Assembly (NCBI RefSeq): GCF_057098645.1
Contig: NZ_CM169472.1
Direction: 5' to 3' (one strand)
DNA: 64,000 nt
Shown: piece by piece, positions 6,001 to 12,000 of the stretch
Position numbering within the stretch: position 1 is the first letter of the stretch
How the letters are laid out: each line of letters begins with the position of its first letter
Made by a program: the position numbers

Positions 6001-9000
6001 AGCACAATGCGCCGTCCGCTATGCGACTGGAACACCCTATTCTGTTCGCTGTTCGAAAGCCGCGCATAAAGCGGCAAGATTTCCGTATGTCGTAAGTTCA
6101 GTTTGTTCAGTGCATCAGCGGTATCGCGAATTTCCCGCTCGCCGCTCATAAAGATCAGAATGTCGCCGGGGCTTTCCTGGCTCAGTTCGTCTACGGCGTC
6201 AAAAATCGCCTGCAATTGATCGCGCTCGGTGTCATCGGCTTCTTCAACAATCGGGCGATAGCGCACTTCCACCGGATAGGTCCGACCGGAGACTTCGATA
6301 ATCGGCGCATTATTAAAGTGGCGCGAAAAGCGTTCCGGGTCGATAGTCGCGGAAGTGATAATGATTTTTAGGTCAGGACGCCGCGGCAGCAACTCTTTCA
6401 AATAGCCGAGCAGAAAATCGATATTCAGGCTACGTTCGTGCGCTTCATCGATAATGATGGTGTCGTACTGCATCAGCAGGCGGTCTTGCTGGATCTCCGC
6501 CAGCAGGATACCGTCGGTCATCAGCTTGACCATCGTGTTATCGCTTACGTGATCGCTGAAACGCACTTTGTAACCGATGCAACCGCCCGGCTCCGTTTTC
6601 AGCTCTTCCGCAATACGGTTCGCCACCGTTCGTGCCGCCAGGCGACGCGGCTGGGTATGACCGATCAGCCCTTTAATACCGCGCCCCAACTCCATACAGA
6701 TTTTCGGTAGCTGAGTCGTTTTACCGGAACCGGTTTCCCCGGAGACGATCACCACCTGGTGATCACGAATCGCTTCGAGAATGTCCTGCTTTTTCTGACT
6801 AACCGGCAAATTGTCCGGGTAAGTAATTTCCGGTCGTGCCGCTTCACGCAGCAGGACTTTCCCTGCCGCCTGGTCAATCTCTTTCGCCATCTCCTGGAAA
6901 ATGGCCTGTTGTGCATCAGGATTTTTAACCTTCTTCACACCATGCAGACGGCGAGAAAAACGCAGTCTGTCACGCAGCATCAGCGAATCCAGCCGCTGCT
7001 GCAAAGCAGTAAAGGTCAATTTTTGTTGTTCTGTCATAACGTTAGAGGGCAGTAGTCTGCCTGATTAATTTTCTTTTAAATGATAGATATAGAGTACCAC
7101 ATCGCGGCTTTCTATGCGTTGTTCAATAAATTCGAACATAGGCTTCGATTTATTGCGCTATCTCTGTGGCAGGATTGTGAATAAAGTGTCAGCAAGCAAC
7201 GGGGCATCGCCCATTCAAACATCTATAAGGAAACACCATGAGCAAGGTATTAGTTCTTAAATCCAGCATCCTGGCAGGGTACTCTCAGTCTAATCAGTTG
7301 TCCGATTATTTTGTTGAACAATGGCGCGAAAAGCACTCCGCTGATGAAATCACCGTTCGCGACCTGGCTGCAAATCCGATTCCGGTACTGGATGGCGAAC
7401 TGGTTGGTGCGCTGCGTCCGAGCGATGCGCCGCTGACTCCGCGTCAGCAGGAAGCTCTGGCACTTTCCGATGAGCTGATTGCCGAGCTGAAAGCCCATGA
7501 CGTTATCGTTATTGCGGCACCGATGTATAACTTCAACATCTCGACTCAGTTGAAAAACTATTTTGACCTGGTTGCACGCGCAGGCGTTACTTTCCGCTAT
7601 ACCGAGAATGGTCCGGAAGGTCTGGTAACGGGTAAAAAAGCCATCGTTATTACCAGCCGCGGTGGGATCCACAAAGATGGACCAACGGACCTGGTGACGC
7701 CGTATCTGTCCACGTTCCTCGGCTTTATCGGCATTACCGATGTGAAATTTGTCTTCGCCGAAGGGATCGCATACGGTCCGGAAATGGCAGCGAAAGCACA
7801 GTCTGACGCAAAAGCAGCCATCGACAGCATTGTTGCTGCATAACCGGACACGGTCTTGATGTGGACTGTAGATATTCAGTCCACATCTCAATCCACTTAC
7901 CTGTTTTCCCACAATCTCAGCATCGCTTTGTGTTCGTCTGTCAGCACAATCTGCGGGCGTCTGGCTCGAATATAGCTAATCGCTTCATTAACGGTTTTAC
8001 AGTGTCCGTAACATAACAACCATGCCGCCACCACCAGCGCACTGCGCGATAATCCCAATGCACAATGGACCAGAACGCTGCCTTGCTCTTCGCGTAATGT
8101 TTCCAGCATCGCCACGGCCTGTCGGAGTTCCCCCTCTTCCGGAACCACCAGATCCAACATCGGTACACAGAAATAGAGTCGATCTTTTGTCTCTCGTCCT
8201 CGAGGGAATTCAAAGGTGACGTCCAGAACCGCATTCTGTGCCGGAATATGTCGTGGAAACGCCCCTAAATAAACACCAGCAGTCATTTTGCTCACCGGCT
8301 CCAGGCGACGACAAAACCAACGCATAGATAGCCACATCCCGATGCGCCAGGGCAATGTCAGCCAGTAAACGGCGGGCGGGAGTTTCCCCTGACTATCTTT
8401 CCCTGTTGTTATCGCGCCAAACCCACCGTACCCACGGCCAATAATGAGTAGCGATAATACTGGCCAACATAACCAGACTGACCACCATAACTGAACCATC
8501 ATCATTAGCTCCATCAACACAATGCACGCGCACGCGCCTACGACATATGGCAGTGCTATTTTGATTCGACGTTGATCAGGTTTCTGATAATTCCAACGAC
8601 GGTCGACGGGTACCATCCAGTCAATCAACATACCTACCGCCAGCCCTGTGATGACATCAATAAAATGATGCTGCCAGGTTGTCAGCGTCGAAATGGCGAT
8701 GAGTAAAAACCATCCGCCGCAGACTTTACGCCAACTCACAGCCAGATGCTGACGAAAGTGACGCCAAAGTAGCCAGCAGAGAATAATATGCAGCGAAGGA
8801 GACTGAACCGCCCCGGGTTTCCTGGAGAGTGTTTTATCTGTGAACTCAGGCTGCCAGATCATCGTTTCCGATGGAAGCATAATAAGCTTTTTCTGCTTCT
8901 GCCGGAGGAGTATGGCCCAGCCTTTCCAGCAATCGTCGATTGTTATACCAGTCCACCCACGTGAGTGTGGCCAGTTCCACTTCTGCACGGTTTTTCCAGC

Positions 9001-12000
9001 TCTTACGGTGTATTACCTCCGCTTTGTAAAGACCATTGATGCTCTCCGCCATCGCGTTGTCATACGAGTCGCCTGTACTTCCTGTTGATGCCAGTAATCC
9101 GGCTTCCTTAAGCCGCTGTGTGTAGGCCAGCGATACATACTGAGAACCTTTATCACTGTGATGGACCGTGCCGGACGGTCGACGGGCCCATAACGCCTGC
9201 TCCAGTGCATCCAGCACGAATGTCGTCTCCATGGACGATGAGACCCGCCACCCCACAATGTATCCGGCAAACACATCAATGATGAACGCCACATAGACGA
9301 AGCCCTGCCATGTGCTGACGTAAGTAAAATCAGCCACCCACAGCTGGTCAGGTCGTTCTGCCACGAACTGACGGTTTACGCGGTCGCCTGCGGCAACGGC
9401 TTTCCGGCTGATGGTCGTACGGACCTTTTTACCCCGGAGAACACCGGCAAGTCCCATAACCGCCATGAGACGTGCCACAGTGCATCTGGCCACTCTGATA
9501 CCTTCCCGTAACAACTGACGCCAGACTTTACGCACACCGTATACCTTGTGATTTTCATCGTATACGCGCTGTATCTCTTTCTTCAGCCAGTCATCGCGCT
9601 GCGCACGGGCACTGCGTTTATCCGGATGATGTCGCTGTTGCTGACAGTGGTAATACGTTGACGGGGCAATATGCAGTTCGCTGCATAGCGGTCCGACCCC
9701 GTACTGCTCACGCAGCTTATCCAGCAGTGGCATCATTTTTTCCAGAGGCGGTCGAACTCCGCCTTCGCAAAATAAGCGGAAGCCTGGCGAAGGATATCGT
9801 TACTGCGGCGCAGTTCACGATTTTCACGCTCCAGCTCTTTCAGACGCTGACGTTCAGCGGTGGTGAGCCCTCCATCACCGCCCCCGGTATCCCGCTCATG
9901 CTGGCGAACCCAGACACGCAGAGTCTCCGGCGTACAGCCAATCTTTGGAGCAATGGAACAAATTGTCGCCCATTGTGAGTCATATTCGCCCTGACTTTCC
10001 AGAACCATACGGACTGCCCGTTGACGGACTTCAGGGGAAAAACGAGTATTTTTAGTCATCCTGTTTACCTCTTTCTCAGGAAGTTTAGTCTCCAGGATTC
10101 CCGGGGCGGTTCAGACTGGTTATAGGGCAGATCAAACAGTTCAAGTTGCGAAAATAGCCATCCTGTCACCCCACTCACTTCAGGACGGATAAAACTAAAC
10201 TTCAGCGGGTAGAGAAAAAAACCGCAGCAGGCCATTACCGTTGCCAGAATAAGCCGGTGGACAAGTCGGCGTTGTTCGAATGTCGAGCTACAAACGAACA
10301 GCGAAAATCCATATAAAAGATCCAGACTCCAGTAAGGAACAATAGTCCAGGGGAGAAAAGGGATCGCCGTTTCCCAGCCGAATACCTGACTGGGGATATC
10401 ATGGCTGTTAAAGTCCTGAACCGCGGTGAACTGATTAAGAGATCCATAGGTGAAGAAGAAAAACGGGGCCAGCAACAATAACCAGCCAGCGCCTTGTAGC
10501 AATACGTTCCGGCGTTCAGTTATCACGACGCACCGCCATCGAAACCGTAAAAATACCCCACTCATCAATCCGTTGTGTGCATTTATCAAATCCGGCATCA
10601 CGCACGAGTGAATCCATTTCCCCTTGCGAACGCACGCGCATTACCCACGGTTTACCATCTTTATGACTGGTTAACACCCCGGCAATTAGCTCCAGTTGTG
10701 GGTGCCACGGCTGCCCGGTGTAGATGAGAATGCCACCCGGTTCGATGGCATTGGCAAGACCTGCGAGGGAGTTCTTTACCTGCTCATTTTCGGGAAAAAG
10801 CTCATACAGTCCAGAGACAATCGCCAGCGTAGGCCGCGGAGTTAACGCGCTGAGTTCCTCCGGGTTAAACGCATCACCCTGTTCAAAACGCACCTGCCCA
10901 GACATTCCCCGTTGGGCAATCATCTCTTGCCCCTGTGCAACATTTAACTCGCTGTAATCACGTAACAAAATATCGCTTACGGCAGGCTCGTTTGCCAGCG
11001 CATCCAGTACATAGCGCCCATGCCCTGCGGCAATGTCAACCACGCGGACGGCTAAACCTTTGGCGTGGAGATCGGCAACGGCTTGTTTAATCAGTATTTG
11101 TAAATGGGTTTTGCGCTGGCGAATACCGCGCCAGCCAACACTGTTCAGGTAGATTTTGTCGACTAAACGCCCGAATGCGTTACTACCTTGCGGTTGATTT
11201 TGATAGACATAATCCAGCGAACTGCCTGAATCAAAGCCGGTGCTCATTCCGAGATGCAGGCCCGCAGAGTGCGCCCCGAACAATTTCATCGCCTTACGCA
11301 TAAAGCGATACGCCAAATCAACCGGCGATAATGGCACGGGTCCACCAGAAAGGAGCCGCCATCGATCCGCTGATGGTCCAGTGCAGTCTTCATGCTGATA
11401 ATCAAATTTTTGCGATTTGTTAGCATATAAGCGACTAATAAAGCTTTGCATTTTTTCAAATGCCAGCGCCCTGTTCTCTTCACCCAACGTGTCGTGATAA
11501 AAGCCTGGCAGCAGATGCAGCTCTTTGAGAGGGCTACGTAAACGCTGATAAAAATCGATCTGCGGTTGGCGATGCACCACATAGTCATCGCCTGATATCA
11601 GAAGTTGCGTGGGGAGCGTAATCGCCGCCGCATCGCTAACAATACGTTCAGACGTTTTATAGAGATCTAGCAAGATATTGACGGCAATCGCCCTTGTGAT
11701 CAGCTGATCATTATTGAAACTCGCCACCCGTTGCCGATCGTGGGTCAAATAGCGTCCTTTCACATAGGAATTAATAAAAAACAGACCACGCAGACGATGC
11801 CATAACGCCAGCGCAGGACGTGCCAGCGGCACATACAATTTAACCTTAAAGGCCGGAGAAGCCAGCAGCAGCCCGCGAATTGCAGGCGCATAATCATGAA
11901 CCCATGTGGCAACCAGTACTGCGCCGACGCTCTGCGCGATCACTACCACCTCTTCCAGCCCGACCTGGCTGTCGCTGGCAGCAAAACGGACAAACTCATC

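Follow-up and report, generated by a model that had tools for sequence, protein, structure and literature searches.

How did a complete insertion sequence (IS) come to lie inside ynbD on an E. coli contig, and what does its presence say about the lineage that carries it? The locus belongs to a 64,000-nucleotide stretch of contig NZ_CM169472.1 (RefSeq assembly GCF_057098645.1), here called the window, in which the original prediction had placed a single IS629-like element, attributing it to a simple, probably recent transposition and taking it as a hint of an O157-type or Shigella lineage. Our analysis indicates that an IS629 isoform almost certainly entered ynbD through an ordinary transposition event, which took place in a recent ancestor of a pathogenic E. 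coli clone of O145:H28 type, and no evidence contradicting this simple-transposition reading emerged.

By direct reading and a scripted comparison of the ends, the element, which carries its transposase genes on the minus strand, was located at window positions 8804-10113 (1310 bp): TGAACCGCCCCGGG opens it at 8804, and the reverse complement of TGAACCGCCCCGGG closes it at 10113. The two ends are identical at all 14 of the 14 outermost positions and at 23 of the first 25, forming terminal inverted repeats of the IS3-family TG...CA type (TGAACC...GGTTCA), and a repeat search returned these terminal arms (8800-8828 and 10089-10117; 29 nt, 90%) as the longest inverted repeat in the region. The element, its ends and the flanking duplication are as follows.

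8801-8803, no strand: left copy of the target-site duplication GAC, from direct reading (the uninterrupted ynbD of O145:H28 genomes has one GAC).
8804-10113, minus strand: complete IS629-type insertion sequence of 1310 bp, 100% identical over its length to O145:H28 chromosome and plasmid copies.
8804-8828, no strand: IRR, the orfB-distal terminal inverted repeat, TGAACCGCCCCGGGTTTCCTGGAGA, matching the other end at 23 of 25 positions.
10089-10113, no strand: IRL, the terminal inverted repeat adjoining the start of orfA, reverse complement TGAACCGCCCCGGGAATCCTGGAGA, from the end comparison.
10114-10116, no strand: right copy of the target-site duplication GAC, from direct reading and empty-site comparison.

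A 3-bp direct repeat by itself has a chance of 1/64 of occurring. The length of the GAC duplication fits the ranges of the IS3 family (3-5 bp) and of IS629 (3-4 bp), the latter being the range described for IS629 target duplications in O157:H7 (PMC3271280). Everything previously described at this position (a complete 1310-bp IS629-type element with terminal inverted repeats, overlapping orfA and orfB, and a GAC duplication, all inside ynbD) was recovered with coordinates exact to the base, and the inverted repeats held up under precise alignment.

The state of the locus before insertion could be reconstructed directly. Rejoined with a single GAC, the flanks form an uninterrupted ynbD-ynbC sequence that is found, 100% identical over 1000 bp, in at least 25 genomes, O145:H28 strains among them, and the reconstructed ynbD is an intact open reading frame (ORF) of 1317 nt (438 aa). 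Because this empty site is 100% identical to the intact ynbD of relatives, the comparison proves, at the level of sequence, that the element inserted precisely and duplicated 3 bp, and it rules out a recombination scar.

We then considered how widely the insertion occurs. None of the 5,426 complete E. coli genomes in RefSeq, the complete-genome set used throughout, has the ynbD::IS junction. Among public drafts, the 153-aa chimera produced by reading through from YnbD (residues 1-137) into the IS was found exactly on six contigs (5' half of ynbD running into IRL), and the fusion of the IS to the 3' part of ynbD was found on contigs of the same draft assembly; the drafts with both junctions include GCA_032490095.1 and GCA_029357705.1, and the junction contigs were 99.98-100% identical to the window. 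Because the junctions recur in public drafts and are absent from complete genomes, the insertion is, on this comparison, real and clone-specific, as well as recent and confined to a small clone. The comparison of ynbD among related genomes that had been proposed as a check on strain specificity therefore came out in favour of a clone-specific event (none of the complete genomes and few drafts), and the reading of a simple, recent transposition was likewise borne out by the identical empty site in the closest genomes, the 100% identity of the copy to those of its lineage, and the restriction of the insertion to approximately six draft contigs.

The coding capacity of the element is that of an IS3-family transposon, with two overlapping genes.

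9733-10059, minus strand: orfA, a 108-aa helix-turn-helix DNA-binding protein (Pfam HTH_Tnp_1, 49 bits; NCBIfam transpos_IS3, positions 1-86).
8846-9736, minus strand: orfB, 296 aa with the DDE catalytic domain, in the -1 frame (Pfam rve, 97.9 bits, and HTH_21, 66 bits; NCBIfam transpos_IS3).

Neither gene contains an internal stop or frameshift. The -1 offset of orfB relative to orfA is seen in the minus-strand codon starts (1 mod 3 for orfB, 0 mod 3 for orfA), and the frame of orfB is open upstream as far as at least 9772. OrfB scored 315.7 bits against the NCBIfam profile NF033516 (transpos_IS3; curated cut-off 160), aligning to profile positions 93-369. In the predicted fusion protein OrfAB, the catalytic residues are D244, D303 and E339 (spacings of 59 and 36), followed by K346 seven residues past the glutamate, which on sequence grounds is the canonical DD(35)E + K signature of the IS3 family. 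Overlapping ORFs, a DDE/rve transposase, the profile score, TG...CA ends and a short direct duplication were thus all found, and the element is a full-length IS629 isoform of the IS3 family that is apparently functional.

Where the ribosome changes frame bears on the transposase that would be made, and two features at the junction of the genes are relevant.

9662-9778, minus strand: frameshift-stimulating pseudoknot of the apical loop-internal loop (ALIL) type (Rfam RF01497, 120.2 bits, E = 2.6e-32).
9769-9772, minus strand: U_UUU (codons UAU UUU), the most probable motif for the -1 shift, located 5 nt ahead of stem-loop 1; the ALIL model begins just 5' of the motif.

The covariance-model match was full length (model positions 1-117 of 117; gathering score 50). 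As we read the Rfam alignment, the apical loop of stem-loop 1 (GUUCGA) can form six pairs, one of them G-U, with the internal loop of stem-loop 2 (UCGGAC), and one ALIL pair appears altered on both sides, from C-G to U-A, relative to the Rfam consensus (GCUCGA/UCGAGC). The motif conserved in the ALIL family alignment is UAU_UUU_G, at 9772-9769. Fusion proteins predicted for this IS by the NCBI pipeline PGAP read ...AYF(G)..., so they contain the -1-frame peptide encoded upstream of a run of six adenines (A6, GGAAAAAAUGA) at the orfA stop; because of this peptide, the -1 shift is most likely placed at U_UUU, before the pseudoknot. The A6 run was rejected as the main shift site on account of the same fusion peptides, the position of stem-loop 1 upstream of the run, and the lack of conservation of the run in the Rfam consensus, and a naive choice of it would probably be wrong for this IS. 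Whichever of the two sites shifts, OrfAB is 404 aa long, in agreement with the 1214-nt 'programmed frameshift' coding sequence annotated by NCBI on a copy that differs by one base in the complete genome C325.

A route for the insertion can be proposed by analogy with better-studied elements. As inferred from IS911, IS2, IS3 and IS1203v, ribosomes would shift by -1, most likely at U_UUU, to produce the 404-aa OrfAB transposase; as in IS3-family elements, OrfAB would nick one end to generate a circular copy with abutted ends (copy-out), and the circle would integrate through staggered 3-bp cleavage of the target (paste-in), giving rise to the GAC repeat. The donor was probably among the many identical copies in the same genome. 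The orfA/orfB arrangement with its -1 frameshift and copy-out-paste-in transposition have been described for IS1203v/IS629, and IS1203v is a substrate of the IS-excision enhancer IEE (bioRxiv 10.1101/2023.06.07.543989). IS911, IS2 and IS3 share OrfA, OrfB, an OrfAB made by -1 frameshifting, a DDE transposase and circle-based copy-out-paste-in, but they are different elements with other frameshift stimulators, and the mechanism would be carried over to the window copy by inference.

The name of the element deserves separate consideration. Copies 100% identical across the 1310 bp are numerous in O145:H28 chromosomes and plasmids, with the IS present at no fewer than 40 places per chromosome (at least 40 in O145:H28 genomes). 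NCBI gives the name 'IS3-like element IS629 family transposase' to a protein that OrfB matches at 100% identity, OrfB also shares a 90%-identity cluster with proteins called IS629 OrfB, and a partial copy labelled IS629 family in genome AR_0013 is 98.7-100% identical to the window element. With IS629 the window copy shares its TG...CA ends, 3-bp duplication and orfA/orfB -1 arrangement, no structural difference having been found, and its 1310 bp equal the IS629 reference length. IS629, an IS3-family element first described in Shigella sonnei, is the predominant IS of enterohaemorrhagic E. coli (EHEC) O157:H7, O145:H28, O26, O111 and O103, and relative to IS629 generally the window copy is peculiar solely in its insertion site (ynbD codon 138), which is particular to this clone. 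A comparison of ten EHEC genomes reported that no IS is more prevalent than IS629 in O145:H28 or in any of the other genomes included (PMC3893438). IS1203 and IS1203v (sub-type I of Rump et al., typical of O157:H7 and O111:H-) have the same size, organisation and mechanism, at approximately 96% nucleotide identity. Because the ~96% identity between the window element and IS1203-labelled copies equals the distance of ~4% reported between sub-types in O157:H7 (PMC3271280), the window copy is, by this measure, not the main O157 isoform (IS1203).

Two points weigh against the interpretation as we have framed it. The position given for the shift is a probable one, the A6 run at the orfA stop being a formally possible alternative, and the name 'IS629' rests on NCBI naming, the isoform literature and the ~96% identity to IS1203-labelled copies. 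The second point leads to the alternative that survives best, namely that the element would be better filed as IS1203, IS3411 or a distinct IS than as IS629 proper. Isoform names are used interchangeably, IS1203 and IS3411 both being treated as isoforms of IS629 (PMC3271280); RefSeq labels identical intact copies only as 'IS3 family transposase'; and the ALIL pseudoknot was described for IS3411 (PMC5009743), the window pseudoknot matching that family (RF01497) over its full length at 120 bits with no difference found. Yet copies labelled IS1203 are just ~96% identical, the NCBI name 'IS629 family' is attached to a protein that is 100% identical across OrfB, and the AR_0013 copy so labelled is nearly or fully identical, making a different filing unlikely.

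It is considerably less likely still that the complete-looking IS629 copy is an inert relic. Its orfA and orfB are free of stops and frameshifts, the DDE residues, both inverted repeats and the pseudoknot are intact, and the sequence is identical to that of the copy that has proliferated in O145:H28 genomes. A rearrangement scar, in which two IS629 copies recombined and joined flanks that were originally not contiguous, has next to no probability: recombination between IS copies is common in principle in a lineage with so many of them, but the two sides fit together as a perfect ynbD that contains a single GAC, and the window is colinear with the complete genomes RM9872 and C325 on either side of the IS. 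Misplacement of a repeat copy into ynbD by the assembler is just as negligible, for although assemblers are notoriously misled by IS elements present in many copies and no complete genome has the insertion, independent short-read drafts carry both junctions as contig ends, and a perfect 3-bp duplication is expected from transposition and not from misassembly.

With ordinary transposition of an IS629 isoform as the preferred reading, the consequences for ynbD follow from the two fragments into which the gene is divided.

10114-10526, minus strand: 5' fragment of ynbD (codons 1-137 and part of codon 138), which reads into the IS and stops at 10065, giving the 153-aa chimera.
7897-8803, minus strand: 3' fragment of ynbD, containing the rest of the PAP2 region and the dual-specificity phosphatase domain, from ORF and domain analysis.

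Intact YnbD matches PAP2_3 at residues 83-197 (weakly) and DSPc at residues 314-437. The IS interrupts the protein behind residue 137 (...YNQS|PSLH), directly ahead of PSLH, a motif that in our reading would correspond to the PAP2 C2 motif 'PSGH' (C2-like). As judged from the disrupted sequence, the insertion destroys the PAP2 part and cuts the C-terminal phosphatase domain off from the ynbD start and promoter. Because ynbABCD ends with ynbD, which is convergent with azoR, no polar effect on a downstream gene is expected. In K-12, deletion of ynbD is viable, and YnbD complemented neither C55-PP nor PGP phosphatase defects (PMC7413402); since the gene is thus dispensable in K-12 and has no assigned function, no phenotype is predicted. 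On the minus strand, a frame that is open over 7897-8988 (possible starts 8880 or 8862) extends from within the IS across IRR into the 3' half of ynbD, and gene callers have annotated it in public drafts as predicted proteins of 327 and 321 aa.

Other IS629-type insertions in or near this locus were also observed. An IS629 hotspot in ynbD was considered and rejected, as an IS629-type element lies in ynbD in just 2 of the 4,618 genomes that have the locus, and there it occupies another site. These two genomes, AR_0013 and OZ546943, resemble the window in having an element of this type in ynbD in the same orientation, but differ in that the insertion lies 285 bp further upstream, in a ynbD allele that is only 96.4% identical, and that the element is split by a group II intron; on this evidence theirs is an independent event. 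In AR_0013 (positions 3482-6681 of its locus, L001), the intron within the IS carries ltrA, the gene for the reverse transcriptase/maturase LtrA. The closest complete genome without the ynbD insertion, C325, has the same IS, with one mismatch, in ydcF (positions 3019-4328 of its locus, L006, corresponding to window 2132-2134); this copy lies 6.7 kb from the ynbD site, is oppositely oriented, has a 3-bp duplication of its own and represents another clone-specific IS629 hop nearby.

The lineage was read from the flanks of the element. Leaving the IS aside, the window aligns colinearly with RM9872, C325 and RM12761 (99.9-100% identity), and only 26 records reached at least 99% identity over 25 kb, those listed being O145:H28, O145:NM or other relatives. 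IS629-like DNA occurs in 4,259 of the 5,426 complete genomes, so its presence is weakly diagnostic. Judging from the flanking sequence, the window falls in the O145:H28 group; the earlier lineage hint therefore stands only insofar as this group is related to O157:H7, and not as an assignment to O157 or Shigella itself. The further statement that the element is the only mobile element in the 64 kb agrees with the colinearity of the rest of the window with annotated references, no transposase or phage gene being annotated in the span shared with them. Mobile elements of the references that are absent from the window comprise the nleC prophage after uspF in RM9872, the IS629 copy in ydcF in C325 and ISEc20 in RM12761. 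A prophage inside the window was considered, given the lambdoid prophage that follows uspF in RM9872, and rejected, since the window runs from uspF to ttcA as in C325 and RM12761; the uspF-ttcA intergenic region (~42350-42530) is an empty integration site of that prophage, which in RM9872 carries the effector gene nleC.

This is a textbook insertion of a known element and as such already known, in a gene described as dispensable and without assigned function (PMC7413402). The ynbD::IS629 junction is usable as a marker for a small O145:H28-type clone, with little import beyond strain typing. IS629 insertion-site polymorphisms are an established means of discriminating EHEC clones. The analysis also corrects the lineage inference, to O145:H28-like instead of O157 or Shigella.

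Several further differences from related genomes were seen elsewhere in the window. Between paaY and pdxI, the window has an inverted segment of 175 bp (17192-17366); the comparison was with all complete genomes of the set, none of which has the window arrangement. In the usual orientation, this region contains the paaY terminator hairpin (AAACCGCAAC-loop-GTTGCGGTTT followed by T7; -17.8 kcal/mol, z = -4.0) and a Shine-Dalgarno-like sequence ahead of the pdxI ATG. One breakpoint lies in the loop of the hairpin, so that the hairpin is split in the window, and the second breakpoint, 2 nt ahead of the pdxI ATG, takes away the Shine-Dalgarno-like sequence and the region upstream of it, leaving unrelated sequence in their place. 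No inverted repeats were found at the breakpoints, just a 1-nt overlap, and the idea of a site-specific invertible switch was rejected on that account. Of the two drafts from the ynbD::IS629 clone, GCA_029357705.1 has the orientation of the window and GCA_032490095.1 the usual one.

In the primary-amine oxidase gene tynA (26178-28451, plus strand), codon 669 of 757 (window 28182-28184) has changed from TGG to the stop codon TGA, a mutation private to the window; RM9872 and C325 each have G at the altered base. Seven single-nucleotide polymorphisms (SNPs) set the window apart from the nearest complete genomes that align at the respective positions (945, 28184, 32875, 40461, 41397, 41652 and 56723), and every one is a G:C to A:T transition, a skewed spectrum in a small sample of seven. 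The private lesions within ~20 kb (ynbD::IS629, the inversion removing the promoter and ribosome-binding-site side of pdxI, and the tynA nonsense mutation), together with this SNP bias, could mark relaxed selection or a mutator or mutagenised clone, or, given the open frame that reads from the IS into the 3' half of ynbD, expression of the C-terminal YnbD phosphatase as a separate protein could be driven from the IS end, although we give these ideas only a slim chance.

Two other lesions are not private to the window. In the lineage, paaG through most of paaK is deleted (~19040-19300, between paaX and paaF), leaving a C-terminal fragment of PaaK, and feaR (30245-31150) has an internal stop that is also present in O145:H28 references. 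Taken with the tynA stop, the paa deletion and the feaR stop look like progressive loss of the phenylethylamine/phenylacetate pathway.

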